Position numbers and translations under genes: made by a program
In this document: positions 9,953 to 52,799 of the stretch, piece by piece
Position numbering within the stretch: position 1 is the stretch's first letter
Layout: each line of letters opens with the position of its first letter
The notes under the pieces: model-generated
The model's input: only the letters and a program-made list of their open reading frames with translations
Database searches by the model: none
What the model was told of the DNA's origin: nothing
Assembly: GCA_035482045.1 (NCBI GenBank)
Contig: DATHRD010000063.1
Coordinates: 2,541-66,540 of the forward strand
From: Thermoanaerobaculia bacterium
GTDB taxonomy: Bacteria > Acidobacteriota > Thermoanaerobaculia > Gp7-AA8
Direction of reading: 5' to 3'
Length of the DNA stretch: 64,000 bases

Positions 9953-10051
9953 CGCGTTGTCGGTTGTCGGTTGTCTGCGCGCTGCGGCGCGCGTGGACGA
10001 GCGCTCAAGAACACGCCAGAGCCAACTCAACCGACAACCGACAACGCGCGC
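9953..10051. repeat. heptad-repeat palindromic element, second copy, on the other side of metK
   Basis: GCGCGTTGTCGGTTGTCGGTTGTC ... CAACCGACAACCGACAACGCGCGC; core resembles the copy at 62875. Confidence 0.65.
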
Positions 10052-10726: not shown

Positions 10727-13330
10727 CTACCCCTTCACCACGATGTTCACCAGCTTGCCCGGTACGTAGACCTCTTTCACGACCTCTTTCCCCGAGATCC
10801 ACTGCTGGACTTTTCCGTTGCCACGAATAGCTGCCAACACGACGTCCTTCTCTGGCGGGTTCGGGACCTCCACCTGTCCGCGCAGCTTGCCGTTGACCTG
10901 CACGACGATGGTGACGACATCCTCGACCATCAGCGCCGGATCGGCTTTCGGCCAGGACGATGTGAGGATGAAGCCCTCGTTGCCGAACATGCTCCACAGC
11001 TCCTCGGTGATGTGCGGCGCGAAGGGATGGAGGAGCTTGAGCAGCGTCGTGTAGGACTCGCGGAGCGTGCCCGCATCGGTATCGCCGGAGGCCAGCGCAT
11101 CGCCGATGGCGTTCGACAGCTCCATGAGGCCAGAGATGGCCGTGTTGAACTCGAAACGGTCGAAGCGCCGCGTGACGGCATCGATCGTCTGATGCGTCTT
11201 GCGCGTCAGTGGATGACGCGACGGTCCGACCAAAACCGCGGCGACTCGCTCGGCGACCGCCTCGCGGTCGGAAGACGATCGGCCGTCGAGTGCCAGAACC
11301 TGCTCGCCCATGTGCCAGACTCGATTGAGGAAGCGCGACGCGCCGTTGACGGCATCGTCCGACCACTCCGCCTCTTTCTCCGGCGGCGCGATGAAGAGAG
11401 TGTAGACGCGCTCCGTGTCGGCGCCATATTTTTCGATCAGCTCATCCGGCGGAACGACGTTGAAGTGCGACTTCGACATCTTGCTGGTCTCGGCGATGAG
11501 AGCCTTGCCTGTCCCTTTGTGCACAGGCTTCCCATCGACCCATTCGACGTCGGCGATCGACACCCACGTCCCCAGCTCGGCGTCGCGGTAACCCTCCTTC
11601 GTGATCATCCCCTGATTGAAGAGGCGCGTGAACGGCTCTTCGTAGTCCAGCAACCCCATGTCGTGCAGCGTGCGGCAGATGAAGCGCGCGTAGAGCAGAT
11701 GGAGGATGGCGTGCTCGATGCCGCCGATGTACTGATCGACCGGCAGCCAGCGGTTGGCCAGCGCCGAGTCGAAGATCTTCGTACCGTCCTTCGCGGAGAT
11801 GAAACGGGCGTAGTACCACGACGAATCGACGAATGTGTCCATCGTGTCGGTCTCGCGCCGCGCGGGACCCTGACAACGAGGGCAGGTCGTGTTGACGAAG
11901 CGTTCATCCTTTGCCAGCGGGTTCCCCTCGCGCCCGGTAAAGGGGACATCGAGCGGCAGTTCGACCGGCAGTTGCTCCTCCGGAACAGGAACGATGCCGT
12001 CGCGGTCGCAGAAGATCATCGGGATCGGCGTCCCCCAATAGCGTTGCCGGGAGATGAGCCAGTCGCGCAGGCGATAGCGGACCATCTTCCTGCCGATGAC
12101 CAGCCGCTCGATCTCTTCGATGATGCGTTCGATGGCTCTTGGTGTGGGCATGCCGGAGATGACTCCGGAATCGATTGCCATCGCGAACTCGTCCTTCACC
12201 ACAAACGCTTCGGTGAGGTTATCCACGTTCGGCACTTCCCTGGTCACCGGGGCGACTACCATTCGAATCGGCAGTCCGTACTGCTTCGCGAACTCGAAGT
12301 CGCGCTGGTCGTGCCCGGGCACGGCCATGATCGCGCCTGTTCCGTACTGCATCAGCACGAAGTTGCCGAGCCAGATGGGGATCTCTTCGTGCGTAAATGG
12401 ATTCGTGGCCGTCTTCCCGGTGAAGCGCCCTTCCTTCCCCGCCTCCTGCCGCTCCAGGTTCGACTGATTGCGCACGCCGGCGATCCACTGCTCGATCTCC
12501 GCGCGCTCCGGATTATCGGCGATGAGCGCCGCGACGTCGGGATGTTCCGGCGCCAGGACCATGAACGTCGCGCCGTAGATCGTGTCGGGACGCGTGGTGA
12601 AGATGCGCAGCGTTTTTCCTAACGACGGCACCGCGAACTCGACGTCGGCGCCGACGGAGCGGCCGATCCAGTTGCGCTGCATCAGCTTCACCTTTTCCGG
12701 CCAGTGCTCCAGCGTGTCGAGGCCCTCGTCGAGCCGGTCGGCGTAGTCGGTGATCTTCAGGAACCACTGCTCGAGGTCGCGCTGCACGACGATGGTGCTG
12801 CATCGTTCGCAGCGCCCGTCGATGACCTGTTCGTTGGCGAGCACGGTCTGGTCGGACGGGCACCAGTTGACCGGCGCCTTGGCGCGATAGGCCAGGCCCC
12901 GTTCATACAACTTCAGGAAGAGCCATTGGTTCCAACGGTAGTACTCCGGGTCGCACGAGGCCAGCTCTTTCGACCAGTCGTAAAGGATGCCCCAGCGGAG
13001 AAACTGCTTCTTCTCCCGCTCGATGTTCGAGAGCGTCCACTGCCGCGGATGGATGCCGCGTTTGATGGCGGCGTTCTCGGCGGGCAGACCGAAGGCGTCC
13101 CATCCCATGGGGTTGAGCGCGGCGCGGCCCTGCATGCGGAAGTACCGGTAGAGAGCGTCGCCCAGGATGTAGTTCCGGCCGTGGCCGACATGAAGGTCAC
13201 CCGAGGGGTACGGGAACATGTTGAGCATGTAGAACTTGTCGCCGGGCGCGGCGACATCGACCTCGGCCACCTTCGCATCGGCCCAGGCGCGCTGCCACTT
13301 CTCTTCGATCAGTTTCGATTCGTAAGGCAT
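10727..13330 (-). CDS. leuS: leucyl-tRNA synthetase
   Basis: MPYESKLIEEKWQRAW...PYPSGDLHVGHGRNY (HIGH motif)...KMSKS motif present; 867 aa. Confidence 0.97.
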   Translation of the reverse strand: MPYESKLIEEKWQRAWADAKVAEVDVAAPGDKFYMLNMFPYPSGDLHVGHGRNYILGDALYRYFRMQGRAALNPMGWDAFGLPAENAAIKRGIHPRQWTLSNIEREKKQFLRWGILYDWSKELASCDPEYYRWNQWLFLKLYERGLAYRAKAPVNWCPSDQTVLANEQVIDGRCERCSTIVVQRDLEQWFLKITDYADRLDEGLDTLEHWPEKVKLMQRNWIGRSVGADVEFAVPSLGKTLRIFTTRPDTIYGATFMVLAPEHPDVAALIADNPERAEIEQWIAGVRNQSNLERQEAGKEGRFTGKTATNPFTHEEIPIWLGNFVLMQYGTGAIMAVPGHDQRDFEFAKQYGLPIRMVVAPVTREVPNVDNLTEAFVVKDEFAMAIDSGVISGMPTPRAIERIIEEIERLVIGRKMVRYRLRDWLISRQRYWGTPIPMIFCDRDGIVPVPEEQLPVELPLDVPFTGREGNPLAKDERFVNTTCPRCQGPARRETDTMDTFVDSSWYYARFISAKDGTKIFDSALANRWLPVDQYIGGIEHAILHLLYARFICRTLHDMGLLDYEEPFTRLFNQGMITKEGYRDAELGTWVSIADVEWVDGKPVHKGTGKALIAETSKMSKSHFNVVPPDELIEKYGADTERVYTLFIAPPEKEAEWSDDAVNGASRFLNRVWHMGEQVLALDGRSSSDREAVAERVAAVLVGPSRHPLTRKTHQTIDAVTRRFDRFEFNTAISGLMELSNAIGDALASGDTDAGTLRESYTTLLKLLHPFAPHITEELWSMFGNEGFILTSSWPKADPALMVEDVVTIVVQVNGKLRGQVEVPNPPEKDVVLAAIRGNGKVQQWISGKEVVKEVYVPGKLVNIVVKG

Positions 13331-13432
13331 GGAGCGGCGAAGTATAAACGGGCCGGCACGGGCGGCATTTGTGCGTTTGCACGTCAGGCCGCATTTCTCA
13401 CACTCTCACTGGAATCGTCGGCACTCTGTACC

Positions 13433-13652
13433 CCGTCGAGAGCCCTTCTCCCCCGCGGTTTCTTGCGGGGGAGAAGGTGCCGACAGGCGGATGAGGGGGC
13501 GGTTCTCACGGCGAAGTTGACTGTTTTCAATCGTTTCCACCCTCCCGTTCATGAAAGTAGTCCACTGCTCTGCAAGAGCCAAAGCCCCCTCATCCGCCTT
13601 CGGCACCTTCTCCCCCCCGCTGAAAAACGCGGTGGGGAGAAGGACTCTCGAT
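13433..13652. repeat. about 220 bp MITE-like dyad element in the leuS 5' leader region: terminal hairpins plus 25 bp inverted arms around an about 90 bp core
   Basis: CTTCTCCCCCGCGGTTTCTTGCGGGGGAGAAG + GGTGCCGACAGGCGGATGAGGGGGC ... GCCCCCTCATCCGCCTTCGGCACC + CTTCTCCCCCCCGCTGAAAAACGCGGTGGGGAGAAG. Confidence 0.55.
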
Positions 13653-13715
13653 GAACACTGTGCCGGCGATTTCAATCAGATTGTGAGAAATCCAGGTTTG
13701 GGTAGGCAATCGTCA

Positions 13716-14085
13716 GTCTCGGGGTATGGAACGACAGGTCTCGGGGTCTGGTGCGCCAAGTCCCGGGATCCGGAACGTCAGGTCTCGGGGTGCGGAACGT
13801 CAGGTCTCCGCGTGCGTAACGTCAGGTCCCGGGGTCCGGAACGTCTAGTCTCGGGGGTGGGGACGTCAGGTCCCGGGGTCCGGAACGTCTGGTTTCGGAG
13901 GTGGGGACGTCTAGTCTCAGGGGTGGGGACGTCAGGTCCCGGGGTCCGGAACGTCTGGTCTCGGGGGTGGGGACGTCAGGTCCCGGGGTCCGGAACGTCA
14001 GATCTCGGGGGTTGGGACGTCAGGTCTCGGGGTCCGGAACGTCAGGTTTCGGGGGTCGGGACCGGACGGGCGCACCCCCGGACTG
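13716..14085. repeat. tandem array of about 17 copies of a 22 bp unit (consensus GTCYCGGGGTSCGGAACGTCAG), with a 44 bp higher-order alternation
   Basis: direct reading; units are contiguous with no spacers, so not CRISPR. Confidence 0.9.
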
Positions 14086-14215
14086 GACGATTCACCGCCC
14101 GTACTGAACCGTTCACAGTGCGGACTGGACAATCAGTGCGAGGAACCGGGCGATTCACCGTGCGGACCGGACGATCCACCGTGCGGACCGGACGCCGCGC
14201 ACAGGGCCCGTCACG
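14086..14215. repeat. second short tandem array, about 6 copies of an about 21 bp unit (CGGACYGGACGATYCACCGTG)
   Basis: direct reading; abuts the first array and the dtd stop. Confidence 0.7.
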
Positions 14216-14645
14216 GCCACACGAACGTAACCGGCCCGTCGTTCTCCAACGCCACGATCATCATTTCCCGGAAGCGGCCGGTCTTCACCTCGATGCCGGT
14301 CGATGCCAGCTCCGCGACGAACAACGCGAACATCGTCCGGGCCCGCTCCGGCTCCTCGGCGTTGTCGAAGCTGGGGCGGCGTCCGCGGGCGATGGAGCCC
14401 GCCAGCGTGAACTGCGACACGGCCAGAATGGCACCGCCGGCCTCGGTCACGTCGCGGTTCATCTTCCCCGCGTCGTCGCTGAAGATGCGCAGCTCGCGGA
14501 TCTTCTTCGCGGCGTCGCGCATGGCCGGTTCGGAGTCACCCTTCTCGACGGCAGCCAGGACGAGCAGGCCGGTTCCGATCTCCGAAACCAGCTCGTCGCC
14601 GACAGTCACGGATGCGCGCCGCACGCGCTGGATGACACACTTCAC
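14211..14645 (-). CDS. dtd: D-aminoacyl-tRNA deacylase
   Basis: GTG start giving VKCVIQRVRRASVTV...; RIFSDDAGKMN...SQFTLAG...RPSF...NDGPVTF matches Dtd throughout; 145 aa. Confidence 0.9.
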   Translation of the reverse strand: MKCVIQRVRRASVTVGDELVSEIGTGLLVLAAVEKGDSEPAMRDAAKKIRELRIFSDDAGKMNRDVTEAGGAILAVSQFTLAGSIARGRRPSFDNAEEPERARTMFALFVAELASTGIEVKTGRFREMMIVALENDGPVTFVWP

Positions 14646-14793
14646 AGCGGCGGATTCTACTCGCGGTAGAAAAACGCACAGGTTCTCGCCCCTCGGATAA
14701 AATACCCGGACCCACACGACGCCCGAGAGCCTCATCTCTCGCGCGGCACGTCCGCGCGCATGTGGACTGAAACAATCGAACAGGAGAATCCAA

Positions 14794-15243
14794 ATGTCAG
14801 GAACAGTAAATCGAGTCATTCTCGTCGGACGCCTCGGCAAAGACCCCGAGATCCGCTCCATCCCCAGCGGTACGAGCGTGGCGAAGTTCTCGCTCGCCAC
14901 CGACGAGAAGTTCACCGACAAGAACGGACAGAAGCAGGAACGAACGGAATGGCACAACATCGTGGCCTGGGGCAAGCTGGCCGAGATCTGCGGCCAGTAT
15001 CTTCGGAAGGGAAAGCTCGTCTATATCGACGGGTCGATCCGCACCGATAGCTGGGACGACAAGGAAACCGGCGTGAAGAAGTACCGTACCGAGATCATCG
15101 CCAAGGACATGCAGATGCTCGACAAGAAGGGCGATGACGAGGGCGGCGGCTACAGCGGAGGCGGCGGCTATACCCGCAAGCCCGCCACCGCGGGCGCGCC
15201 CGCGGGCGGCGAGGTGGAAGACGACGACGAGGTACCGTTCTAG
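14794..15243 (+). CDS. ssb: single-stranded DNA-binding protein
   Basis: [21 protein letters not shown]...[14 protein letters not shown]...; Gly-rich tail ending DDDEVPF; AGGAGAA RBS upstream. Confidence 0.95.
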
Positions 15244-15252
15244 GAGCGAGGA

Positions 15253-15358
15253 GTAGCGCCGGCGGCCTCGCCGGCTGGACCGCCGGCGGCTCGCCGGCGA
15301 CATTCTCAAAACCGCCAGCGAGCCGCTGGCAGTCCAGCCGCCGAGCCGGCGGCGCTAC
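15253..15358. repeat. REP-A palindromic element between ssb and the hemolysin-III gene
   Basis: GTAGCGCCGGCGGCCTCGCCGGCTGGACCGCC...CAGTCCAGCCGCCGAGCCGGCGGCGCTAC. Confidence 0.65.
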
Positions 15359-15371
15359 CTCGACACACACC

Positions 15372-15992
15372 ATGTACGCCGGCGAGCGATTCAACAGCAT
15401 CACGCACATCGCGGGGAGCGTGCTGGCGGTCACCGCGTCGGTCTTCGCCATCCATGCCGCTGTCACGCACGGGCGCGACGCCACCACGATCACGGCTGTG
15501 GCGATCTACGGCTCGATGCTGATCGTGCTCTATCTCAGCTCGACGCTCTACCACTCGTTGCGCGGCAAAGCGAAGACAGTCTTTCACGTCTTCGACCACT
15601 GCGCGATCTACCTCCTCATCGCCGGCACGTACACGCCGCTCACGCTCGTCACGCTGCGCGGCCGCTGGGGATGGTGGCTGTTCGGCACCGTCTGGACTCT
15701 GGCCATCGCCGGCGTTTTGAAAGACACCCTCCTGCACGGGCGCTACCGCCCCGTCTCGGTCGTGCTCTACATCCTGATGGGATGGCTCGTCGTGGTGGCC
15801 ATCAAGCCGCTGCGGATGGCCATGCCGGCGGATGGGATCACCTGGATCGCCGCCGGCGGCGCCGTCTACACCGCCGGCCTCGTCTTCTTCGCACTGTCGA
15901 AGCGCGTCGCGCACATGCACGGCATATGGCACCTCTGCGTGATCGGCGGCAGCGCCTGCCACTACGTGGCCGTCATGCGGTACGTGGTGTAA
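15372..15992 (+). CDS. hemolysin III / PAQR family channel protein
   Basis: MYAGERFNSITHIAGSVLAV...SSTLYHS...FDHCAIYLLIAGTYTP...; 7-TM pattern typical of YqfA/HlyIII. Confidence 0.85.
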   Translation: MYAGERFNSITHIAGSVLAVTASVFAIHAAVTHGRDATTITAVAIYGSMLIVLYLSSTLYHSLRGKAKTVFHVFDHCAIYLLIAGTYTPLTLVTLRGRWGWWLFGTVWTLAIAGVLKDTLLHGRYRPVSVVLYILMGWLVVVAIKPLRMAMPADGITWIAAGGAVYTAGLVFFALSKRVAHMHGIWHLCVIGGSACHYVAVMRYVV

Positions 15993-16512
15993 AAGCGTAG
16001 AGCGGGCGTCCTCGCCCCTACGCGCTAACTTACGCTGGCATCCTCCCGAGAATCCCTGCTGTATAGCCGCGATAGCGGCCAAAGACGATAGCCAGGGGTG
16101 CGAGCGCTTCTTGCGAGCACCCCTGGTCATCGACGTCAATGCATGTCGTGCCGCGTCAGCGGCACTGGACGTCATCGGACGACTGTGACTCCACTCCAGT
16201 GCCGCTGGCGCGGCACAGAACCATGGCGCCTGGTTACCAGGGGTGCTCGCAAAAAGCGCTCGCACCCCTGGCTACCTTCCGTTGCCGCTATCGCGGCGTT
16301 TGGCCTTAGGCGTTGCGTTTACGTTAGCGCGTATGGGCGTCCCGCCTGCTCCCGGCGGGCGTCCTTGCCTGACGGTGGGGCCGAGGGCGTCACCACTTCG
16401 GTTCCCGAAGCGGCTTCCGGGCGGTCCTGCGATCAAAGACTCGGAAGTCTCACGGAAACCACCGGCGGGCGAGGACGCCCGCCGGGAGCAGGCAGAGATG
16501 CCTGCTCTACGC
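15993..16512. repeat. left copy of an about 520 bp highly structured element forming a long inverted repeat with 17575-18110
   Basis: about 90 % identical to the reverse complement of 17575-18110 over about 330 bp; contains palindromes CCAGGGGTGCGAGCGC..GCGAGCACCCCTGG (x2), TGCCGCGTCAGCGGCACTGG..CCAGTGCCGCTGGCGCGGCA, and end-to-end pairing GCGTAGAGC..GCTCTACGC. Confidence 0.85.
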
Positions 16513-17034
16513 GCCGTCCAGGTAGCGCTCGCGGACGATGCCCATGTGGTGACGCTCGTGGCCGAGGATGATGTAGGCGAGGGCACGGACGCTGATGGGG
16601 TTGTCGCTGGCGGTGCCGGTGCGGCGCCATGCCTCCTCCGGCAAGGCCTGCAACATCATCACGTTGGCGCGCCGCACCGCGGCCAGTTCGCCGGCGAGAT
16701 CGGACATCGGCCGATCGTCGGCGCCGCTGTTGACGACGTACGGCTCCTGATCGAACCCAGGCAGCGACTTGGTCTCGCCGCGCGCGATGGAAAGCGCCCG
16801 GTAGGCGAAGATGCGCTCCGCGTCCGTGACGTGTCCGACGAGTTGCTTGACGCTCCACTTGTCCGGCGCGTAGCGATGAGACGCCTGCTCTTCCGACAAG
16901 CCGCCGAGCAGCGTCGCCGTCTCCCGTGCCTGCGCGTCGAGCGCGTCCACGATGTCATCCTCGCTGGCAAGGTCGATGTACTTCTGATAGTAGCTGCCGT
17001 ATTCGCCGGCCTGGGGCCGTCCCGCGTTTTTCAT
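16507..17034 (-). CDS. DinB/YfiT-like (DinB_2) metal-dependent four-helix-bundle protein
   Basis: start MKNAGRPQAGEYGSYYQKYIDLA...; HxxD and HxxxH-type motifs (VGHVTDAERIF... ILGHERHHMG); about 175 aa. Confidence 0.7.
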   Translation of the reverse strand: MKNAGRPQAGEYGSYYQKYIDLASEDDIVDALDAQARETATLLGGLSEEQASHRYAPDKWSVKQLVGHVTDAERIFAYRALSIARGETKSLPGFDQEPYVVNSGADDRPMSDLAGELAAVRRANVMMLQALPEEAWRRTGTASDNPISVRALAYIILGHERHHMGIVRERYLDGA

Positions 17035-17064
17035 ATGCGCATCATCGCGTAGACTCGCCCATGA

Positions 17065-17556
17065 ATGGAAGAGATGGAGATCGGACGGCTTGCCGGCGAC
17101 GACGAGGCCCGCGCCTGCGCCGGGATGATGTCCTCGAGCGAACCGTGGATTTTCTTCGGCCGGACGTTCGAGCAATGCCTGGCCCGCGTGACCAATCCAG
17201 CCGGAGAAGTGTGGGTGGCACGCCATGGCGGCATCCCGCGAGGATTCGTGATCCTCGTGCTGCAAGGGGCGTTCGTCGGCTACATCCAGATCGTCTGCGT
17301 CGCCGCGGACGCTCGGGGCGGCGGGATCGGATCGCGCCTCGTCCGCTTCGCCGAGGAGCGCATCTTCCGCGAGTTCCCCAACGTGTTTCTCTGCGTCTCG
17401 TCGATCAATCCGCGCGCCCGGCAGCTCTACGAGCGCCTCGGGTACACGCTGGTCGGCGAGCTTGACGACTATCTCGTGCGCGGACACTCCGAGTTCCTGA
17501 TGCGAAAGTCAGTCGGGCCGCTGGCCGAGTTTCGTCCGGATGCCGCCGGAGTCTAA
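17065..17556 (+). CDS. GNAT family N-acetyltransferase
   Basis: VCVAADARGGGIGSRLVRFAEE (acetyl-CoA binding Q/RxxGxG/A motif); 163 aa; divergent from the DinB-like gene with a 30 bp gap. Confidence 0.8.
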   Translation: MEEMEIGRLAGDDEARACAGMMSSSEPWIFFGRTFEQCLARVTNPAGEVWVARHGGIPRGFVILVLQGAFVGYIQIVCVAADARGGGIGSRLVRFAEERIFREFPNVFLCVSSINPRARQLYERLGYTLVGELDDYLVRGHSEFLMRKSVGPLAEFRPDAAGV

Positions 17557-17574
17557 CGACTGAGTGACGGTGAC

Positions 17575-18110
17575 GGCGAACCCGCGGAGAGCGGGCATCC
17601 TGCCTGCTCCCGGCGGGGGTCTCGCCCGACGGTGGGGACGAAATCATCTCCAAAATGTCGGGCCAACACGCCGACGCCTAACCCGCGCTTCGAGGTTCAA
17701 CCCTGCTCTTGCCGGGACCCACCGCCGGGCGAGACGCCCGTCGGGAGCAGGCAGGATGCCTATACGCGCTGACTAAACGCAACGCCGAAGCCCAAACGCC
17801 GCGATAGCGGCAGCGGATGGTAGCCAGGGGTGCGAGCGCTTTTTGCGAGCACCCCTGGTAACGAGGTGCCATGGTTCCGTGCCGCGCCAGCGGCACTGGA
17901 GTGGAGCCACAGTCGTCCGATAACGTCCAGTGCCGCTGACGCGGCACGACATGCATCGACATCGATGACCAGGGGTGCTCGCAAAAAACGCTCGCACCCC
18001 TGGCTACCGTCTTTGGCCGCTATCGCGGCATACACAGCAGGGATTCCCTGGGAGCACGCCAGCGTAAGTTAGCGCGTATGGGCAGGATGCCCGCTCTCCG
18101 AACGCAACGC
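17575..18110. repeat. right copy of the about 520 bp structured element (inverted relative to 15993-16512)
   Basis: see left copy; outer end ...GCGCGTATGGGCAGGATGCCCGCTCTCCGAACGC mirrors the left outer end. Confidence 0.85.
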
Positions 18111-18146
18111 GACGGCGGGACTGCCGAACCACCGCGAGACACCGTC

Positions 18147-18602
18147 TCAGCTTTTGGCAGCAGCCGCGGCCATTGTCCGGAAGCGCTGACGCAACGTCTC
18201 CAGGCGCTCCTCGATCCCAGGCGCCGACATCACGACCTTTTCCAGGTGCTTGCCGAAGCCCGGACCGGTGATCTGCCGAATCTCCGGAAGCAACGGATGA
18301 ATCTTCGCGAAGGTGGCGAAGATCTCCCCGTTCGCGTCGAGAAACATCTCACGGTCGATGGCATCATGGGTGACCAGCGAGCAGGCCATGTCCCAATATC
18401 CGGCGACCATTCGCAGGTGCGGATTGTGCGGGCCCGCCAGCGCGGCCTTCACGTCGTCGATGGTCTCGGGGTTGAAGTCGCGCACGAACCAGAGTCTGGC
18501 TTCGCGGAGAACGGCCTCGCGGCGCATCTCGAAGATCTGCAGAATCAGCTTGGCACTTTCGTAGGGTGTCGGCATGGCCGCGCACTCTATCGCAATCGGC
18601 AA
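18147..18602 (-). CDS. hypothetical protein
   Basis: 151 aa ORF with plausible start; no family recognised. Confidence 0.45.
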   Translation of the reverse strand: MPIAIECAAMPTPYESAKLILQIFEMRREAVLREARLWFVRDFNPETIDDVKAALAGPHNPHLRMVAGYWDMACSLVTHDAIDREMFLDANGEIFATFAKIHPLLPEIRQITGPGFGKHLEKVVMSAPGIEERLETLRQRFRTMAAAAAKS

Positions 18603-18627
18603 AGGTTTGTGATCACTCAGTCAATCA

Positions 18628-18742
18628 GTGATTGGTAGATTAGTAGATTAGTCGATTAGTGGATTAGAACCGATCAGAACCAGGCATCCGGACCACTCCA
18701 CGAATCCACTGATCCACTAATCTACTAATCTACTAATCTTCC
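18628..18742. repeat. AT-rich imperfect palindrome built from TAGATTAG octamer repeats, between two same-strand genes
   Basis: GATTAGTAGATTAGTCGATTAGTGGATTAG ... CCACTAATCTACTAATCTACTAATC. Confidence 0.55.
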
Positions 18743-19283
18743 GCCCGTCCGAGCGCAGGCGGGCCGTCCCGCTCATCGCCCAGTTGTACGGAATCTCCGG
18801 GGAGTCATACGGAAGGCGGTAGTGATCGGGGTCTTCGTAGTTGTAGGCCTTGGTAGGGCAGTTCACGACGAGCGCGTCGGAAGCGCCGAGGTTTTGCAGG
18901 CCGTGCCACACGCCGCTCGGGATCACGACGAAACAGGGCCGGGCGTCGCCGGCGTGCAGCTCCATCACCTGTCCGGCCGTCCTGCTCTCCTCGCGGCCGT
19001 CGAAGAGCACGATCTTCAAATGTCCCTGATTCACGAAGAGCCGATCGATCGTGCCGGCGTGACAGCTCCATGCGCCGATCGCCGCCGGAAAGAGGCGCGA
19101 TTGGTAGATGTGGACGACGGGAAGGCCGGTGGGGTCCCATTCCGGGCGATACATCTCGGTGATCACGCCATGGTCCCGAGGGACGTGGAGCACTTCGCGA
19201 ACGACGATGCCGTCGATCCCCTTCTCGATCTTCTGCCAATCGTTCGTCACCAACTGCGTATCTTTACGCGCCCCTGGAAGCAT
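18717..19283 (-). CDS. RmlC-like cupin (dTDP-4-dehydrorhamnose 3,5-epimerase-related)
   Basis: 188 aa; cupin-like core with ...FVVIPSGVWHGLQNLGASDALVVNCPTKAYN...; resembles RmlC/sugar-isomerase cupins. Confidence 0.55.
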   Translation of the reverse strand: MLPGARKDTQLVTNDWQKIEKGIDGIVVREVLHVPRDHGVITEMYRPEWDPTGLPVVHIYQSRLFPAAIGAWSCHAGTIDRLFVNQGHLKIVLFDGREESRTAGQVMELHAGDARPCFVVIPSGVWHGLQNLGASDALVVNCPTKAYNYEDPDHYRLPYDSPEIPYNWAMSGTARLRSDGRKISRLVD

Positions 19284-28152: not shown

Positions 28153-30135
28153 ATGCTTATTCGTATGAAAATCGCCGTCATCGCTGCTGTGCTGACGATT
28201 TGTTCGACCGCCGTCTTCGCCGGCGCCGATCTGAGCCTCGTCGCCTTCAGCTCTCCCCCGACTCTCCTGGCCGGCTCGCTGCTGCCGCTCGGGTTTACCC
28301 TGCACAACGGCGGCGTTGACAACGCGAAGGACGTGGTCGTGACCATCACCGCGACCGGTGGCGTGACGACTCGGTGCGAGAACGGCTGTTCCGTCGGCAC
28401 CGTTCTGGCCGGCACGCAGTCGTACTTCAGTCCGGGAATTGCGTTCAACAACCCGGGCGACGTGACGATCACGGCTACGGTATCGAGCAGCACGCCCGAC
28501 CCTGACCTCAGCAACAACAAAACGTCAGTGATTGTGACGGTGTCACCGGATCCCGACGTTGTCGTGAGCTTCTTCTTCGTGCCCCTGAAAGTGGATCTCG
28601 GACTCCCCTTTTCGCTGGAGATCTACGCGCACGATGAGTCTCTTGTCGTGGCGCACAACGTCGATGTAACCATCGACTTCCGCCCTGACGTGGGCATCAA
28701 GTCGCTGCCAGCAGGTTGCAGTAGTGCCCAGGCCGGGCGCGTCGTCTGCCACGCCGACACCCTGCCGAATAGCGGAGAGGTACTGTCCACATTCACCCTG
28801 ATCGGGCCGCCGGCGTATGGCGACGGAGGGATCACCTTCACCGCCACGGCGACCGAGAGCGAGCAGGACTTCGATCCCAAATCGAACACGGCAACGACCT
28901 TTACCCCGATCGTTCTCCCCCTGGTGGTGACATCAACGGCGAACGATGGCAGCGGCTCGCTGCGACAGGCCATCTTCGACGCCAATGCCGCCGCCACGAG
29001 CGGCCCCATCAGGATCAGTTTCGGCATCGACGAGCCCTCGGCAAACAAGTGGAAGACGATCCACATCACCTCCCCGCTTCCGGCGGTGACGGCATCGAAC
29101 ACTCAGATCGACGGAGCTACGCAGAGCAGTCTCCTCGGAGATACAAACCCCGACGGTCCGGTGATCGAGATCAGCGGCGGCGGGACCGTCGACGGCGATG
29201 GCCTCACCCTCGAAGGATGCGTCGCCGAGGTCGCGAATCTCGCCATCAACGGATTCCAACGCAACGGCGTCTCGGTCTTCGATGCGCACCTTCCCGCGAA
29301 GTGCACGGTGTCCGCGCAGCTTCACAACCTCTTCATCGGCACCGATCCAACCGGCTCCGAAGCGCGGCCGAACGGGCAGCGCGGCATCGGGATATCGAGC
29401 GGAGGAGCATCCATTTTCGACTGCGTCGTCTCTGGCAACGCCAGGAGCGGTGTCTTCGACCTGGCGGGACTGGTGGGGATCTTTGGAAATCGGATCGGCG
29501 TGAAGGCTCACAGCGATGACCCGCTGCCGAATGGTGCCAGCGGTATCTTTATCGGCCCGGGAGGCTACGGCTCTTTCATCGGATCGGACATCATCGCGTC
29601 CACCCGCCCGGGGAACGTGATCGCCTTCAACCGCGAGATGGGAGTTGCCATCGCCGCCGGCGTATTCGACGTCTCGGTCCGCGGCAACAGGATCTGGAAC
29701 AACGGCGGACTCGGAATCGACATTGGCCTCGACGGGCCGACGATGTCGACGATGTCGGATCAAGGCTCACTGATCACCGCACCAACGCTGACGCTCGCGC
29801 ACTACGACCCCGTGTCGAACAAGACGATCGTCGAGGGAGACGCAGTGGCCCATTCCAATGCGGGCGATCCTTTCTTCCCGGTCGACTTCTATGCGAATGA
29901 CGCCGCGGGCCCGTCGGGCTTTGGCGAAGGACAGCGCCCGATCGGCATGACGAAGGACGCCAACTTCACCTCGGCAACGCATTTCCATATCGAGTTTGAC
30001 GGCGATCTGACAGGCCAGTTCATCACGGCCACAGCGACAAATGTGAATTACGAGGGTTTCGCCAAGCCGGAAGGGACCGATCAAGGCTTCCTGACGCAGA
30101 CCTCGGAGTTCAGCCGGGCCATCGAGGTCCGTTAG
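28153..30135 (+). CDS. secreted right-handed beta-helix protein with N-terminal DUF11/CARDB-like domain
   Basis: signal peptide; DLSLVAFSSPPTLLAGS...; VTSTANDGSGSLRQAIFDANAA cap motif; repeated N-x-I-x-GN beta-helix rungs; C-terminal 28 aa shared with the next gene. Confidence 0.65.
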   Translation: MLIRMKIAVIAAVLTICSTAVFAGADLSLVAFSSPPTLLAGSLLPLGFTLHNGGVDNAKDVVVTITATGGVTTRCENGCSVGTVLAGTQSYFSPGIAFNNPGDVTITATVSSSTPDPDLSNNKTSVIVTVSPDPDVVVSFFFVPLKVDLGLPFSLEIYAHDESLVVAHNVDVTIDFRPDVGIKSLPAGCSSAQAGRVVCHADTLPNSGEVLSTFTLIGPPAYGDGGITFTATATESEQDFDPKSNTATTFTPIVLPLVVTSTANDGSGSLRQAIFDANAAATSGPIRISFGIDEPSANKWKTIHITSPLPAVTASNTQIDGATQSSLLGDTNPDGPVIEISGGGTVDGDGLTLEGCVAEVANLAINGFQRNGVSVFDAHLPAKCTVSAQLHNLFIGTDPTGSEARPNGQRGIGISSGGASIFDCVVSGNARSGVFDLAGLVGIFGNRIGVKAHSDDPLPNGASGIFIGPGGYGSFIGSDIIASTRPGNVIAFNREMGVAIAAGVFDVSVRGNRIWNNGGLGIDIGLDGPTMSTMSDQGSLITAPTLTLAHYDPVSNKTIVEGDAVAHSNAGDPFFPVDFYANDAAGPSGFGEGQRPIGMTKDANFTSATHFHIEFDGDLTGQFITATATNVNYEGFAKPEGTDQGFLTQTSEFSRAIEVR

Positions 30136-30248: not shown

Positions 30249-32237
30249 ATGAAGAGCCCACTCGCAGCCGCTCTGCTCGCCCTCCTGGCCATGCCGCTGC
30301 TCGCCGACGCCGATCTGAGCATCACGAACGAATCGACATTGACCGTCGTGCGCGCGGGAGCAAACGCGCCCATCGACTACACGATCCACAATGCAGGACC
30401 GGACACGGCTTCGAAAATACTCATTACGATCACGATGACCGGCGTGACGGAGTCAACCCCATGCACCAGCGGCTGCACGACCGTCTCGGTCCCTATCAGC
30501 AGTGACCTTCCGGCCGGAAAGTCCGTCCGCTACTACTCAACCTTGCCGGCTCCTGCCACTGCCGGTGAGGTCACGTTGACGGTCACGGTCTCCAGTGGCG
30601 TTCCCGATCCGAACCCCGCCGACAACAGCTACACGACAACGTTCACAGTCTCACCCGACCCCGACGTCTTGATCGGTGTCGGCGCGGCGCCGCGGTTGGA
30701 CCTCGGTCTGCCGTTCCGACTGACGATCGGCCTGGGCAATTACGCGCCAATCGATGCTCATGACGTCGACGGAACTGTCGACTTCTCCACCGACGCAAGC
30801 GTCCTGTCCTTGCCAGTGGGATGCACCAATCCGATACCGGGACGCGTCATCTGCCACGTTGACGCGCTGGCAGGGGGAATCGCCGGTGTCCGGACCTTTC
30901 CCGTGACGCTTGTCGCGCCGCCCACGTACGGCTCAGGGTCGATCTCCTTCGCGGCCACCGCTACCGAGCGCGAGCCGGATTTCGATCCTCAGTCAAACGT
31001 AGCGTCCTCGACCTCCCAGCTCTACAACACCTTCTACGTGACATCAACCGCCAACGATGGAACAGGCTCGCTGCGGCAGGCCATCCTCGACGCCAACGCC
31101 GCAACGAGCGGTCCGATTGCGATCGCATTCCGGATCGGAGAGGCCTCGTCGGCGCCGTGGAAAACCATCCGAATCACATCGCCATTGCCGCCGATCGAAG
31201 GCTACGACGTGCGCGTCGACGGCGCTACGCAGAGTGGCTTCTTCGGAGATACAAACCCTGACGGTCCGGAGATCGAGATCACCGGCTCTGGCAGCGTCGA
31301 TGGCGACGGCCTGGAACTGACCAATTGTGAGGGCGAGTTCGCGAATCTCGCCATCAACGGGTTCCGAGGCAACGGCCTCTCCGTCACAGATTCTCACCGT
31401 TCCCCGGACTGCTCGCAGTACTTTCAGAGCACGCTTCACAACCTATTCATCGGCACCGACCCTACTGGCACCGAGGCCCGGCCGAACGGGCAGCGCGGGA
31501 TCGCGGTTTCCGTTGCCGGAGTTGCCATCGTTCATGACTGCGTCCTATCGGGCAACGATCGGAGCGGGATCTTCGACCTGTCGGGAGTCATGACGATCTG
31601 GGGAAACCGCATCGGGGTGAAGGCTCACAGCGATGACCCGCTGCCGAACGGTGCCAGCGGAATCTTTATCGGCCCCGATGGCTACGGATCAGCCATTGGA
31701 GCCGACATCCTCACGCCCACCCGCCCTGGGAACGTCATCGCCTTCAATCGAGAGATGGGGGTAGCCATCGCCTCGGGCGTGAACAGTGTATCCGTCCGCG
31801 GCAACAGGATCTGGAGCAACGGAGGGCTGGGCATCGACATCGGCCTCGATGGGCCCACGCTGTCGACGAAGTCACGGTTTGGCTCCCCGATCGATGTGCC
31901 GACGCTGACTCTCGCACACTACGACCCCGTGTCGGCGAAGACGACCATCGAAGGCGACACGCTGTCGTCACTCACAATCGACCTGTATGCGAGCGACATC
32001 GCGGGCCCCTTTGGGTTTGGCGACGGGCAGCGGCCGATCGCTTCGAAGAGCGCCGACCTCGTTGAAGTTGGCTCGGCGAACCACTTCCGCATCGTAGTGG
32101 ACGGCGACCTGACCGGCCAGTTCATCACGGCGACGGCGACGTTCACGGACTACGAAGGCTTCGCCAAGCCGGAAGGGACCGATCAAGGCTTCCTGACGCA
32201 GACATCGGAGTTCAGCCGGGCCATCGAGGTACGATGA
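30249..32237 (+). CDS. paralog of the preceding secreted beta-helix protein
   Basis: same architecture; VTSTANDGTGSLRQAILDANAA; near-identical central block and C-terminus YEGFAKPEGTDQGFLTQTSEFSRAIEVR. Confidence 0.65.
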   Translation: MKSPLAAALLALLAMPLLADADLSITNESTLTVVRAGANAPIDYTIHNAGPDTASKILITITMTGVTESTPCTSGCTTVSVPISSDLPAGKSVRYYSTLPAPATAGEVTLTVTVSSGVPDPNPADNSYTTTFTVSPDPDVLIGVGAAPRLDLGLPFRLTIGLGNYAPIDAHDVDGTVDFSTDASVLSLPVGCTNPIPGRVICHVDALAGGIAGVRTFPVTLVAPPTYGSGSISFAATATEREPDFDPQSNVASSTSQLYNTFYVTSTANDGTGSLRQAILDANAATSGPIAIAFRIGEASSAPWKTIRITSPLPPIEGYDVRVDGATQSGFFGDTNPDGPEIEITGSGSVDGDGLELTNCEGEFANLAINGFRGNGLSVTDSHRSPDCSQYFQSTLHNLFIGTDPTGTEARPNGQRGIAVSVAGVAIVHDCVLSGNDRSGIFDLSGVMTIWGNRIGVKAHSDDPLPNGASGIFIGPDGYGSAIGADILTPTRPGNVIAFNREMGVAIASGVNSVSVRGNRIWSNGGLGIDIGLDGPTLSTKSRFGSPIDVPTLTLAHYDPVSAKTTIEGDTLSSLTIDLYASDIAGPFGFGDGQRPIASKSADLVEVGSANHFRIVVDGDLTGQFITATATFTDYEGFAKPEGTDQGFLTQTSEFSRAIEVR

Positions 32238-32394
32238 GCCCGCACCACGGGCGGCGACACGCTCGGGGTCAGGGGTTCCCCCGGAACGATGATCCGCGCG
32301 CATACGGGCGCCGCGCCTACGAGCTATGTCACTGCTGCCTCACCGTTATTGGTGGTCCTGGGCACGTGAACGCGAAAAAATGGTGAGTTAACGC

Positions 32395-32705
32395 ACTCGC
32401 GGAGTTCGTGATTAGACTTCGCGAGTCCATGAATTGACTCTGGGAGGCAATTAATTGACTCCGGGAGGCCATGAATTGACTCCGGGAGGCAATTAATTTG
32501 ACTCTGCGAGGCCATGAATTGACTCCGGGAGGCAATTAATTTGACTCTGGGGGGCAATTAATTGACTCCGGGAGGCAATTGATTTGACTCTGGGAGGCCA
32601 TGAATTGACTCGGGAAGGCCATGAATTGACTCTGGGAGGCCATGAATTGACTCCGGGAGGCCATGAATTGACTCCGGGAGGCAATTAATTGACTCCGGGA
32701 GTCCG
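32395..32705. repeat. tandem array of about 14 copies of a 21-22 bp unit (CATGAATTGACTCCGGGAGGC alternating with AATTAATTGACTCCGGGAGGC)
   Basis: direct reading; contiguous units with no spacers. Confidence 0.9.
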
Positions 32706-32789
32706 TGAATGGACGCGTTGGCTCACGAACGAGACCCTCGCCAACGACAGAACGCTCCGTCGATCCGACGTCTTGCCTCTGAATACGCC

Positions 32790-32965
32790 GGTTTGGAACT
32801 ACCGCCGCGCGAAAACACGTCTCAGCCCGGATTCCCTGGGAGAGCAGGCACGGACGCTTGCTCTACGCCCGGGGACCGGTCGGACTGGAGAGTCGGGCTA
32901 CGTTCGCTCAGAAGGCTGCGCGCGGCGAGCACGAGCATTGCCGTCTCGCCGTGGCGGAGACCCTA
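32790..32965 (-). pseudogene. orphan 3'-end fragment of a GT2 gene plus its downstream hairpin, duplicated from the 1890-2040 region
   Basis: about 85 % nt identity to 1925-2030; minus-strand translation ...LVLAARSLLSER* versus ...LVRAARSLLERT* at the 3' end of the GT2 at 1968-2960. Confidence 0.5.
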
Positions 32966-33069
32966 TGCGCCGCCATGCCCCGAGCACACCAGCACCAGCC
33001 GCTCGACGACCGACTTTCGGTCCGAGGCCGAGCTTTACCGGTCCAAAGCCGGCCTATTCACCGTCCGGC

Positions 33070-33909
33070 TCAGGTAGGGCTGACCGTGCCCCCGGGAGCG
33101 GCGAGCTCGATGCCAGCATCGACGACGGCCTGCCGCACCCGCGAGTCGCAGAGCGCGGCAGTCTCGGCATCCCACTCGTAACGCCAATGCGGGTAGGCAT
33201 TTACGCGGACACCGGGATGGGTGACCAGCTCCGTCGTCCCGTCGACGTGCGAAAGCAGGTCGACGACTCGGCCGGCGGTCAGGTGGCCCGCCTCCATCAC
33301 GCCGATGGTGTGATCGTTAACGCTGCAATCGTTTGACCGAGCGACCGCGGCCGCGGCGGCCCCGACGCGGTTCAGCGCCGCGATCATCGTCCGCCGAACG
33401 ATCCCACCCCTTCCGCCCCTGTCGTCTACACGGCGCACGTAGCCGATCCCGTATTCGCCCGCCAGCCGGAGGGTGATCGCAAAGACGCGGGGCAGCATGT
33501 GCAAGTGCTGGTGCCCGTTGAGGTGCGTCACCCGGAGGCCGGACGCCAGTACGCGCTCGATCTGTGCGCGCAGCTCGCCTTCGATCGCGGCAGAGTCCTT
33601 TCGCCCGAGGAGGAAGCCGAGGTACGACTTCGGAAAGCGCATGCCGGTCAGCGAGCGCTCCTCGACGAGCGCCAGATGGACGCCCACCGCGAGCGAGGGC
33701 ACGTCGCGCAGCCGTGCCACGGCGTCGTCGAATGCCACACCATTGGCGACGACGCTGCACGCGGTCACGATCCCGTCGCGATGTGCGCGGATGGCCCCCT
33801 CGGTCATCCCGCGATGGAGGCCGGCGTCATCCGCGGTGACGATGAGCCGCCTTGTTGTAACGCCGGCCGCTCTCGCGTCACTACCCGGCAAAGGAGGAAT
33901 TCTCATGCG
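33070..33909 (-). CDS. YdjC/ChbG (HpnK-like) carbohydrate deacetylase family protein
   Basis: LIVTADDAGL...NGHQHLHMLP...; start codon uncertain (several in-frame Met). Confidence 0.65.
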   Translation of the reverse strand, partial: RMRIPPLPGSDARAAGVTTRRLIVTADDAGLHRGMTEGAIRAHRDGIVTACSVVANGVAFDDAVARLRDVPSLAVGVHLALVEERSLTGMRFPKSYLGFLLGRKDSAAIEGELRAQIERVLASGLRVTHLNGHQHLHMLPRVFAITLRLAGEYGIGYVRRVDDRGGRGGIVRRTMIAALNRVGAAAAAVARSNDCSVNDHTIGVMEAGHLTAGRVVDLLSHVDGTTELVTHPGVRVNAYPHWRYEWDAETAALCDSRVRQAVVDAGIELAAPGGTVSPT

Positions 33910-51324: not shown

Positions 51325-52050
51325 ATGCATAAGCTTTTCTTATTCGTCGGAATAGCGGTTCTCTTCAATCGAGCAGCGTTCGCAGCCGACGGCTGTGAAC
51401 AAGGAACGTTCCCAGTCAGATCGATCAGCGGTTTCGACCTGTCTAAACCCGGCAATTTGGAAATTGCCATGGATGCATTAAAGTTAGATGAAGGGGACGA
51501 ATTGGAGTTTGCGTCGTCCCACGAAAGCGGTCATAAAACTACGAAGGTTCGGACTTGTCGAGAATATGACGCAGCGATCGAACAGAGACTCTTACTTATG
51601 ACTGGGACTCAGCGGACACCTGAATTTCTGCGTGAGTGTAAAGTCTTGAGATTTCTGAAGAAAGCAAACGCGGCGAGCAGTAGTTGTATCGAGGGGTATC
51701 AATTGACCAAAAAATCGCCGGACGAACTGCCTCCTTCTCTTGGTTACGTTATATCGGGCGAACAAGCAGAAGCAGTCGATAAAGCGGAACAGGTCAATTG
51801 GAGTTGGAGAAAATTTTCGCCAGAACTGGAATTTCATGTTTTGAGCCCCACAACGCTTACTGCCACAGGCCAGGGTGTAGTCGATAAATTAGAAGTCATG
51901 GGATTTGGCGATTTCAATCATGATGGTATCCAGGATATGCTGGTATGGATCAGCGACTACGGTGGAGGAACGTTGGTCCACTACGATGCAATTGTCCTGA
52001 CGCGAAAAGATAAAAAGTCTGGTTTTCACACGTTAGCCAGAATTGAGTGA
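51325..52050 (+). CDS. secreted hypothetical protein encoded in a low-GC islet
   Basis: MHKLFLFVGIAVLFNRAAFAADG signal peptide; clearly AT-richer codon usage than its neighbours; C-terminal GDFNHDGIQD (FG-GAP-like). Confidence 0.55.
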   Translation: MHKLFLFVGIAVLFNRAAFAADGCEQGTFPVRSISGFDLSKPGNLEIAMDALKLDEGDELEFASSHESGHKTTKVRTCREYDAAIEQRLLLMTGTQRTPEFLRECKVLRFLKKANAASSSCIEGYQLTKKSPDELPPSLGYVISGEQAEAVDKAEQVNWSWRKFSPELEFHVLSPTTLTATGQGVVDKLEVMGFGDFNHDGIQDMLVWISDYGGGTLVHYDAIVLTRKDKKSGFHTLARIE

Positions 52051-52124
52051 CTTCGGGTTTCGCGTCCAACAAATCGGTGGGCGTTCCATCGTTGGCCGGG
52101 AACCGGTAGGATCGGACACTGCTT

Positions 52125-52799
52125 ATGAGCTTTCTCATCACCGCCACCCTTCTTTTCGCCACGAAGCTTTCGATCGAAAGCGTCAATCCCGGGAATCAAG
52201 GGAAGGTTTGTTTCGCGACGACCCTGGACGCGAAGGAGTGGATGATGCTGGCGAGGAAGCAGCTCGGACCGGCGGTGATCGACCACCCGACGAAGGAGAT
52301 GCTCGACGAGCACTACTCGGAAATGGATGGCGGCAGCACGTTCGCATTCCAGGTACCGGCGCCCCCGGGGATTGCAGCCGAGGAGGTGACGGTGCTGCAC
52401 CAGGCCGGAGTCCGCGTCGTGCGTGCGGATACTCTGCAGGGAACGCTCCTGGTCCACGGCAAGGAGCGGGAGGCAAACGGGGTGGCGTGCGGCAGCTTGC
52501 CGGACGGAGTCACGCCACTCTTCGTCCTCCGCAACGGCCAGCGGAGCGAGTACCTCGGCAGTGCGACCCTCGTCGATTCGAAAACGTTCCGGTGGAACGA
52601 CAGGCGCTATGCAGTTGGCCAGACACTTCAGGCTGGCGACCTGCGTGCCGTCGCGATCGTGCGCATCGGCATGGACCTCATCGCGGCACTGGTGGGCGCG
52701 GAAGGCAGCGGCGCCTGCGACGGAATCCACGCCCTCATCGATTTGACGAAGGCGGACCTCCCCGTCATCGCGCGCAATACGTGGGGTTGCGGGGATTAA
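52125..52799 (+). CDS. hypothetical protein
   Basis: 224 aa ORF; competes with antisense ORF 52026..53090; no family recognised. Confidence 0.3.
   Translation: MSFLITATLLFATKLSIESVNPGNQGKVCFATTLDAKEWMMLARKQLGPAVIDHPTKEMLDEHYSEMDGGSTFAFQVPAPPGIAAEEVTVLHQAGVRVVRADTLQGTLLVHGKEREANGVACGSLPDGVTPLFVLRNGQRSEYLGSATLVDSKTFRWNDRRYAVGQTLQAGDLRAVAIVRIGMDLIAALVGAEGSGACDGIHALIDLTKADLPVIARNTWGCGD

Follow-up and report, generated by a model that had tools for sequence, protein, structure and literature searches.

A short tandem repeat between two genes of a Thermoanaerobaculia bacterium raises the question of what such an array is and whether it acts on the genes around it. The original prediction had described 14 copies of a 21-22 bp unit, each with a TTGACT hexamer and a GGGAGG block, and had hinted at a -35-like and Shine-Dalgarno-like function. 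The array was analysed in the whole 64-kb stretch of DNA at hand, hereafter called the window. TRF located it at 32415-32714 (period 21, 14.1 copies, 83% matches, score 384), and a second call described it by a higher-order period of 43 bp (89% matches, score 412). Anchoring on the conserved core resolved 14 units with starts from 32415 to 32691 and steps of 21 bp (ten times) or 22 bp (three times), in full agreement with the predicted copy number and unit length. The 15-mer TTGACTCYGGGAGGC, searched with up to two mismatches, had 13 matches in 64 kb, all within the array, where 0.34 were expected, and none of 100 shuffles reached this number. A 17-mer unit query with up to three mismatches gave no match outside the array across the window. 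The array was also correctly said to be AT-richer than its context, with a GC content of 0.50-0.53 between flanks of 0.63-0.69 and a value of about 0.64 for the whole window. An independent ENA metagenome assembly (L001) is 99.995% identical to the window over 21 kb, array included, and has the same intergenic length of 832 bp. In a third data set, a Logan contig (L011) breaks off within the array, as expected for a repeat. The array is thus a genuine feature, of which the exact copy number may be uncertain as all the assemblies that contain it are built from short reads.

Two convergent stop codons, at 32237 on the plus strand and at 33070 on the minus strand, border the gap of 832 bp that contains the array. 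Upstream, the beta-helix neighbour that had been announced was confirmed by Pfam as a gene for a DUF11/CARDB and right-handed beta-helix protein of 662 aa (30249-32237, plus strand), also called in L001. It is the second of two tandem paralogues, with its stop codon on the side of the array. The gene on the other side (33070-33807, minus strand), which encodes a YdjC/ChbG-family carbohydrate deacetylase of 245 aa according to Pfam, the L001 gene call and homologues, likewise ends towards the array. The gap itself is a mosaic of a repeat element with a hairpin module, a gene fragment and degenerate units of another type. The left flank of the element (32238-32394) is homologous to positions 1027-1183 of a second locus, L004 (alignment, blastn). 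It contains a conserved block of 32 nt, TCACCGTTATTGGTGGTCCTGGGCACGTGAAC (32340-32371), which is 100% identical to L004 and is followed at 32383 by the motif GTGAGTTAACG, found by motif search. The two degenerate left-most units, ACTCGCGGAGT and ACTTCGCGAGT, form a predicted boundary hairpin of 11 pairs (32395-32426, MFE structure), and the 14 head-to-tail units of the array proper follow. The right flank (32715-32875) is made of decaying units and then of about 135 bp with 85% conservation to L004. Near its end a hairpin is formed by GAGCAGGC (32842-32849) and GCTTGCTC (32856-32863), followed by TACGCC. This hairpin module (32842-32869) is a small dispersed repeat, with further copies at 16500 in the window and at 1874 in L004.

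The element is followed by a fragment of a GT2 glycosyltransferase gene (32876-33014, minus strand), composed of a terminator-like hairpin (CGGACT..AGTC) and the last ~125 nt of the gene. The corresponding original, window 1945-2094, comprises the 3' end of the GT2 gene (1968-2960, minus strand) and the hairpin that follows it, and the copy at 32876-33014 matches it at 77%; the duplicated gene fragment reported next to the array is therefore real. The remaining part of the gap (33015-33069) holds about 2-3 degenerate units of 21 bp that are homologous to the end of an array in a related locus, L005, and are also present in L012. The genes of the window include metK, lptE, leuS, dtd, leuB, pepA, moaC, those for poly(A) polymerase, a signal peptidase and TonB, and several glycosyltransferase genes, and no transposase, rep or par gene is found among them. 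The window is ordinary housekeeping chromosome. By the names borne by homologues of YdjC and HemL, the organism belongs to class Thermoanaerobaculia of the Acidobacteriota. A replication landmark was considered and rejected, as the window shows neither a GC-skew switch nor a cluster of DnaA boxes.

The unit is not confined to this locus. A search of 241 million metagenome records with the unit dimer returned exactly two further loci, L003 and L004, both from JGI sample Ga0210394, while the same dimer had no match in the GTDB representative genomes, where relatives of the beta-helix protein were likewise sought without result. The L003 array consists of 14 units and that of L004 of 18. All three arrays are located between convergent genes in unrelated gene contexts: L003 has an ECF sigma factor gene, the ORF of which terminates within the array edge, and a fragment of a periplasmic-binding-protein gene, and L004 has a GT1 glycosyltransferase gene and hemL. 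Across organisms and contexts, the arrays agree in their unit sequence at about 85-90%. Window 32238-32880 aligns to L004 1027-1895 at about 80-85%, degenerate edge units included, with the L004 element interrupted by a nested MITE-like element. L003 has the array and the edge units in common with the window, and not the flanks. Terminal inverted repeats and target duplications are not visible at the homology boundaries of window and L004, which are two flank-sharing copies. No GACTC-type unit was found outside of the arrays, neither in the 64-kb window nor in about 92 kb of relatives' loci. The element, the unit and the 32-nt block were also searched in plasmids, phages and viral contigs with no match, including no similarity to 72,556 plasmids, so that nothing supports a derivation from a known plasmid or phage. 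Directly to the right of the L003 array, L003 4084-4710 is a 95% copy of L003 8738-9365, a segment made of a terminator hairpin and the 3' end of a gene located 4.6 kb away. This arrangement matches that of the GT2 fragment beside the window array.

The repeat unit is composed of a 13-bp near-palindrome, GACTC-NNN-GAGGC, and an AT-rich spacer of 8-9 bp, which in the window is CATGAATT, AATTAATT or AATTAATTT. The spacer is palindromic too (CAATTAATTG, or GCAATTAATTGA with its neighbouring bases), and as a consequence the reverse complement of the whole array is almost the same as the array itself. All 14 units share a single orientation and directly abut. Some of the predicted details were too regular. 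TTGACT is present in 13 of the 14 units, the first one having TAGACT, and GGGAGG is exact in nine and absent as an exact block in the others. The spacers CATGAATT and AATTAATT do alternate, but in the left half only, the right half being a run of four CATGAATT units. Conservation by position was computed on 43 units from the three arrays. Positions G1, C3, T4, G11, T16 and A19 are invariant and A2, A10, C13, A15 and T21 are at least 95% conserved, while the variation is concentrated at the core centre (positions 6-9) and at spacer positions 14, 17 and 18. Positions 6, 8, 14, 17 and 18 are variable in all three arrays.

In the internal units, the 13-bp palindrome is interrupted by a constant A/G mismatch (GACTC versus GAGGC, in 39 of the 43 units), which suggests that the sequence and not the pairing is conserved. 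The first and the last unit of every array are closed by GAGTC instead; the last window unit (32691-32703) is a perfect palindrome, GACTCCGGGAGTC, and in L003 both end units have a perfect-palindrome core. Unit spacing over the three arrays is 21 bp in 30 cases and 22 bp in 13 (mean 21.3 bp), with a mean of 21.25-21.36 bp in each array, which is about 2 x 10.6 bp. At both edges the array decays into degenerate units. The boundary hairpin persists in L004, where an A:T pair has undergone a compensatory replacement by C:G and two pairs are added. The higher-order period is 43 bp in the window, 43 bp in L004 and 64/107 bp in L003, and private unit variants occur in L004 (GACTCTGGCAGGC, seven times) and L003 (GACTCTGAGAGGC, three times). 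The arrays have therefore turned over in situ. Each unit also contains GANTC; an explanation by methylation or restriction was discarded, as elsewhere in the window GANTC is about as frequent as expected (4.0 versus 3.3 per kb).

Loci syntenic to the window were retrieved through YdjC homologues. In L005 and L006 (YdjC 84% identical to that of the window) the gap between the beta-helix gene and ydjC measures 340 bp and carries a different 21-bp array. In L013 (82%) the gene ends overlap and the gap is about 0 bp, in L014 (80%) a gap of 68 bp is without array, and in L008 (76%) a gap of 101 bp contains a fold-back of 15-bp repeats. The GACTC unit is absent from all of these gaps. The L005 array consists of 11-13 copies of the palindromic 21-bp unit TAGTTC-CCCGGTC-GAACTA-TT, and its last degenerate units are the ones homologous to window 33015-33069. 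Orthology of the left flank was not retained, since window and L005 have only the 11-mer ACTGCTGCCTC and GTGAGTTA(A)CG in common, which is too weak. On the side of L004, relatives with HemL identities of 99, 96 and 93% show no array in the gap downstream of hemL and have different neighbour genes there. As the corresponding gaps in relatives are devoid of it, the GACTC-type arrays are gains in particular lineages, and they tend to occupy places of disturbed gene order. One orthologous convergent gap thus displays three different fold-back-forming repeat structures in three relatives.

The array is non-coding, as the mixture of 21- and 22-bp units breaks every reading frame and no ORF survives. 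Concatenated translations of the array, compared with an index of 5.8 billion proteins, gave 1291 word candidates, none of them significant. Coding flanks were rejected likewise, with frame-breaking indels in the window/L004 alignment and short ORFs in different frames. The array has a strong potential to fold, with z-scores of -7.1 (plus strand) and about -8.6 (minus strand) for RNA and of -7.9 for single-stranded DNA. Large fold-backs were also predicted in other convergent gaps of the clade (z of -6.2 in L008, -7.4 in L016 and -6.7 in L017), while the fold of the L014 gap was not stronger than that of shuffled sequences (z +0.96). The overlapping gene ends of L013 and the unstructured gap of L014 indicate that any function is dispensable.

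These data point to the array being, very probably, a non-coding member of a lineage-specific family of dispersed, array-bearing intergenic repeats in soil Thermoanaerobaculia (Acidobacteriota). An element of about 640 bp, with a left flank, tandem near-palindromic units and a right flank with its end hairpin, was copied into the convergent gap, and the array was then expanded and homogenised in place via slippage or unequal recombination. No transposase or terminal repeats were found that would account for the copying of the element. Given the near self-complementarity of each unit, a long imperfect fold-back could form in unwound DNA or in RNA that reads through from either of the convergent genes. 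The most likely effect of such a fold-back is structural: it may act as a bidirectional barrier at both 3' ends, by attenuating transcription and/or by protecting from 3' exonucleases. This is favoured circumstantially by the lack of a canonical intrinsic terminator in the gap and by the large fold-backs in other convergent gaps of the clade, and disfavoured by the two relatives that have no structure at this site, by the fixed A/G mismatch, by the period and by the array type at window 13700, which is not self-complementary. This terminator or stabiliser mechanism, which draws on analogy with other bacterial repeats, is given somewhat less than an even chance. For the repeat-family identity and the effect taken jointly, the probability is estimated at about 0.5.

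The idea of tandem -35-like and Shine-Dalgarno-like elements that would drive or titrate transcription or translation draws on TTGACT in 13 and GGGAGG in nine of the 14 units, and it can hardly be correct. A sigma-70 scan of 31800-33500 found no -35/-10 pair, and the hexamer located 16-18 bp past each TTGACT is TGACTC, GACTCC or ACTCCG, so that the hinted promoter has no -10 partner. The sole ATG to follow a GGAGG does so after 2 nt, and its ORF ends after two codons (ATG AAT TGA). Both flanking genes point into the array, which, placed between two convergent stop codons, has no gene behind it that could be transcribed or translated. The hexamers TTGACT and GGGAGG merely come with the conserved repeat sequence AATTGACTC...GAGGC, inside which both of them fall. 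A sigma-54 -24/-12 element in the conserved left flank was rejected too, where by eye only GG-N10-GC fits. It is also very unlikely that the locus encodes a non-coding RNA of its own in which a module is repeated 14 times, such as a CsrB/RsmZ-like sponge for a protein or for the ribosome with GGGAGG motifs, or with CCUCC motifs if read from the other strand. Such a gene would fit with the conservation of about 640 bp, both flanks included, between two unrelated loci, with the highly conserved 32-nt block upstream and the conserved hairpin at the right end, and with a GGA motif in most units. However, neither strand has a promoter-like or terminator-like site, and a scan of the 832-bp gap revealed no intrinsic terminator of the canonical type. 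No Rfam family matched at gathering threshold, the hits with E<=1 being at chance level (best 19.6 bits against a cutoff of 180 bits). Moreover, GGA is found in a predicted stem and not in a loop (MFE structure), the predicted fold is one long fold-back and not a series of separate hairpins, and L003 has the array without the flanks.

The array may alternatively be a functionless satellite, neutral or selfish DNA expanded by slippage in an insertion-tolerant gap, of which palindromy and period were merely inherited from the founding unit. This is judged unlikely. The patchy presence among close relatives, the decaying edges, the private variants and own higher-order repeats of L003 and L004, which are typical of concerted evolution, the mosaic of several repeat modules in the gap, and the gene fragments and synteny breaks that accompany the arrays (window 32876-33014, the L003 duplicate, the differing downstream neighbours of hemL) all speak in its favour. 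It is at odds with the ~85-90% conservation of the unit across organisms and contexts with variation at few positions, with a 32-nt flank block 100% identical between window and L004 next to a flank of about 80%, with the boundary hairpin retained through a compensatory change, and with the recurrence of one period in unrelated arrays. That last observation would be explained by phasing, and not by RNA folding, if the array was a phased protein-binding array. Each unit would be the site of a dimeric sequence-specific DNA-binding protein, and the two-turn spacing would place the sites on the same face of the helix for a cooperative filament or a wrapped complex. The mean spacing of close to 2 x 10.6 bp in all three arrays is consistent with this proposal, as are a conservation pattern resembling that of a binding site and the half-sites GACTC and GAGGC, held 3 variable bp apart with a conserved asymmetry. 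Nevertheless, a protein-binding role is rather improbable. Genes for rep, parA/parB, a transposase or an orphan HTH protein adjoin none of the three arrays, the window consists of housekeeping chromosome without a DnaA-box cluster, and relatives do without the array at the orthologous site. Six unrelated units would call for six proteins or for one that reads shape, and the positions that are polymorphic in all arrays could go back to ancestral variants of the unit instead of reflecting a constraint.

Among known systems, the array resembles REP/BIME sequences. These imperfect palindromes of 20-40 bp lie outside of genes and cluster at gene 3' ends, frequently in convergent gaps; they vary in presence among close relatives, form mosaics with other small repeats and fold strongly as RNA. 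REP325 of E. coli works both as a terminator and as a stabiliser of mRNA, and for REPs in convergent gaps a correlation with higher expression of the two genes is reported (bioRxiv 10.64898/2026.03.23.713779). REP clusters with head-to-tail units and 5-bp stems were described in Thauera, and canonical REPs have a conserved GTAG or CGTC tag at one end of the palindrome (PMC3733652). In contrast, the unit consensus of the window is without GTAG/CTAC or CGTC/GACG, its units are all head-to-tail and abutting whereas BIME REPs alternate in orientation with linkers, the arrays count 14-18 units in a strict 21/22 bp register, no single or paired unit occurs outside arrays in 64 kb and ~113 kb of relatives, and no RAYT transposase is encoded among the window genes. 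An assignment to canonical REP/BIME was rejected for want of the tag and the alternating orientation, and of solo copies in the DNA searched. The likeness to MITEs and REPINs lies in a small, non-coding, multi-copy element at gene 3' ends that sometimes supplies the stop codon (L003) and that is nested with a true MITE-like element in L004; it differs from MITEs in that no terminal inverted repeats or target-site duplications are apparent at the window/L004 boundaries, where two flank-sharing copies were compared.

Direct repeats of similar size are also known from plasmids. The iterons of R6K and pPS10 are 22 bp long, the parC repeats of pSK41 measure 20 bp, and sopC of F consists of 12 repeats of 43 bp, each with an inverted repeat. 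The likeness concerns direct repeats of about 20-22 (or 43) bp in helical register with an inverted repeat suiting a dimeric binder. Plasmid iterons, centromeres of the parC/sopC type and nucleoid or gyrase sites at convergent gene ends would be the nearest analogues of a protein-binding array. The window array, however, lies between 3' ends without an adjacent rep gene, AT-rich unwinding element or DnaA boxes, its neighbours being the beta-helix, YdjC, GT2 and LeuB genes, and no parA/parB or parM/parR genes are present in the window or beside the L003 and L004 arrays. A replication origin or centromere was thus rejected, the direct-repeat register being there but neither rep/par genes nor a DnaA-box cluster. 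A CRISPR array was dismissed as well, as the units follow each other directly and their spacers of 8-9 bp recur instead of being unique. Minisatellites and VNTRs share with the array the head-to-tail units, the decaying edges, the private variants and the 43/64/107-bp higher-order periods, a combination that implies unequal exchange or slippage. They differ from a repeat with the same unit at unlinked loci with conserved non-repeat flanks, with palindromic units and with one period across unrelated arrays. The array is an undescribed variant of the known bacterial clusters of intergenic palindromic repeats or minisatellites.

The presence of a second array with a unit of 21-22 bp in the window had been noted as unusual. 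It was found as a 22-bp array at 13700-14062 with an adjoining 21-bp array at 14079-14194, and the observation turned out to be a regularity of the clade. A census was made in 176.9 kb of clade DNA that had not been selected for arrays, namely the window and eight loci, by considering tandem arrays with a unit of 10-40 bp in at least 5 copies. Six arrays were obtained, starting at 13700, 14079 and 32415 in the window, at 10769 in L005, at 8963 in L016 and at 21126 in L017. All of them have a period of 21 or 22, with mean periods of 21.0-22.1 bp. The one in L016 has at least 20 copies and higher orders of 43/64/86/129 bp. Consensus sequences of four unit types (window 32415, L005, window 13700 and window 14079) are no more alike than shuffles, the best alignment, of window type A with L005 type B, reaching a p of about 0.06 (cyclic/reverse alignment against shuffles). 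Common ancestry of the four types was rejected as not significant by this comparison. The units of L016 and L017 look unrelated to the rest, too. Palindromy is strong in four of the six types, weak in one and absent in one, the window 13700 type not being self-complementary (z -0.5). The other sizeable arrays in the 176.9 kb have units of 7-8 bp, which are often arranged in inverted pairs, except for one with a 12-bp unit that probably belongs to coding sequence. No description of the shared 21-22 bp period was found in literature searches. A role in RNA structure leaves the clade-wide period unexplained. The regularity may stem from common descent followed by a complete turnover of the sequences, from selection for helical phasing over two turns, or from a ruler-like amplification mechanism.

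Taken by itself, the locus is of moderate interest. It adds an undescribed family of intergenic repeats in a poorly studied, uncultured soil lineage and removes a false lead towards promoters and ribosome-binding sites, and it illustrates a practical problem, as short-read assemblies break within such arrays (L011). It is the 21-22 bp rule of the clade that merits follow-up. The array could be one instance of a clade-wide class with unrelated units, a period that is always 21-22 bp and mostly palindromic sequences, a proposal that has to be considered doubtful at present; at the density of about one per 25-30 kb in the DNA examined, the genomes might, with equally long odds, hold on the order of a hundred or more such arrays. 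If this was true, the arrays would represent a type of bacterial satellite DNA that has not been described before and that has a role in the chromosome, produced by a length-measuring amplification, for example by a hairpin-recognising enzyme of the HUH type adding units head-to-tail, or alternatively used by a chromosomal protein that reads shape or phase and assembles on the arrays. A genome-wide rule would mean that a constraint or a mechanism acts on the length of the repeat rather than on its sequence, be it protein phasing or ruler-like amplification. It would also offer a tractable system for the function of bacterial intergenic palindromic repeats, which is still debated for the REPs of E. 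coli.

Tandem arrays with a unit of 10–40 bp and at least five copies were counted in 177 kb of clade DNA that had not been chosen for arrays, namely the window and eight loci of relatives. The period was 21–22 bp in all six arrays. In the window, 16 copies of a 22-bp unit (about CGTCAGGTCTCGGGGTCCGGAA) occupy positions 13700-14062, with higher-order periods of 44 and 66 bp, and are adjoined by 5.5 copies of a 21-bp unit at 14079-14194. Both arrays have the dtd 3' end on one side and the leuS 5' end on the other. Three clade loci carry 21-bp arrays with palindromic units of unrelated sequence: TAGTTCCCCGGTCGAACTATT in L005 (10769-11001), CGAATACAACGTTGCATTCGC in L016 (8963-~9570, at least 20 copies) and GGCTTTAAGCCTACCCCAGTA in L017 (21126-21290+). 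In contrast to the other array types, the 13700-14062 array lacks self-complementarity (folding z-score -0.5). A degenerate 21-bp periodicity was also seen in an AT-rich stretch (GC 0.39) at window 53330-53560, which contains only short and broken ORFs. It is placed in a 620-bp gap that lies upstream of the minus-strand gene at 52026-53090 and downstream of a poly(A)-polymerase-like gene.

Upstream of the array between the beta-helix and ydjC genes, a 32-nt block (TCACCGTTATTGGTGGTCCTGGGCACGTGAAC) was found at window 32340-32371 and, with 100% identity, at 1131-1162 of the metagenome locus L004, where it also precedes the array; the surrounding flank is only about 80% identical. A search of viral contigs with this block gave no match. 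The beta-helix gene beside the array (30249-32237) and its tandem paralogue (28153-30135) both encode DUF11/CARDB and beta-helix domains and share about 75% nucleotide identity. Among the syntenic loci of relatives, L005 also has two such genes, L013 and L014 have one each, and L008 has four (10876-18878).

Several other repeats were observed. A REP-like palindrome family (GTGGCACAGACACTCNTGTCTGTGCCAC) is kept across the clade, with copies at window 2392-2484, 37682 and 37920 and in L005, L014, L015 and L016; two copies in L016, located in the gap that follows hemL, pair into a stem of 27 bp (z -7.4). Heptamer tandem repeats in inverted pairs, predicted to form long hairpins, lie at window 8638-8721, 9956-10045, 62879-62997 and 55049-55507. 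Pairs of (GTTGTCG)n/(CGACAAC)n bracket metK on both sides, and a second type consists of (CGGGGGT)n/(ACCCCCG)n. The ORF called for poly(A) polymerase is over-long and takes in the 55049-55507 block, which is probably intergenic DNA. Another dispersed family is a ~260-bp element of inverted repeats (GGGGAGAAGG.../...CCTTCTCCCC), found at window 13390-13650 and at 2118-2377 of the metagenome locus L003 (90.8% between the window and the organism from sample Ga0210394). In L004, the flank to the right of the array hosts a nested MITE-like element (1707-1860) with ~25-bp terminal inverted repeats (CCGCCGGGCGAGGACGCC), bounded by duplicated GAGCAGGC; partial copies are located at window 16462-16512 and 17584-17761.

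Larger duplications were detected as well. In the window, a ~385-bp inverted duplicate (15996-16379 and 17718-18100, 91% identity) flanks a DinB-family gene region. In L003, a periplasmic-binding-protein gene has its 3' half and terminator hairpin duplicated with 95% identity (4084-4710 and 8738-9365), and a defence-like SIR2-NACHT gene (4898-8392) adjoins the duplicate. Since the L003 array abuts the 4084-4710 copy, with the SIR2-NACHT gene as a neighbour, it lies in a rearranged and probably variable region.
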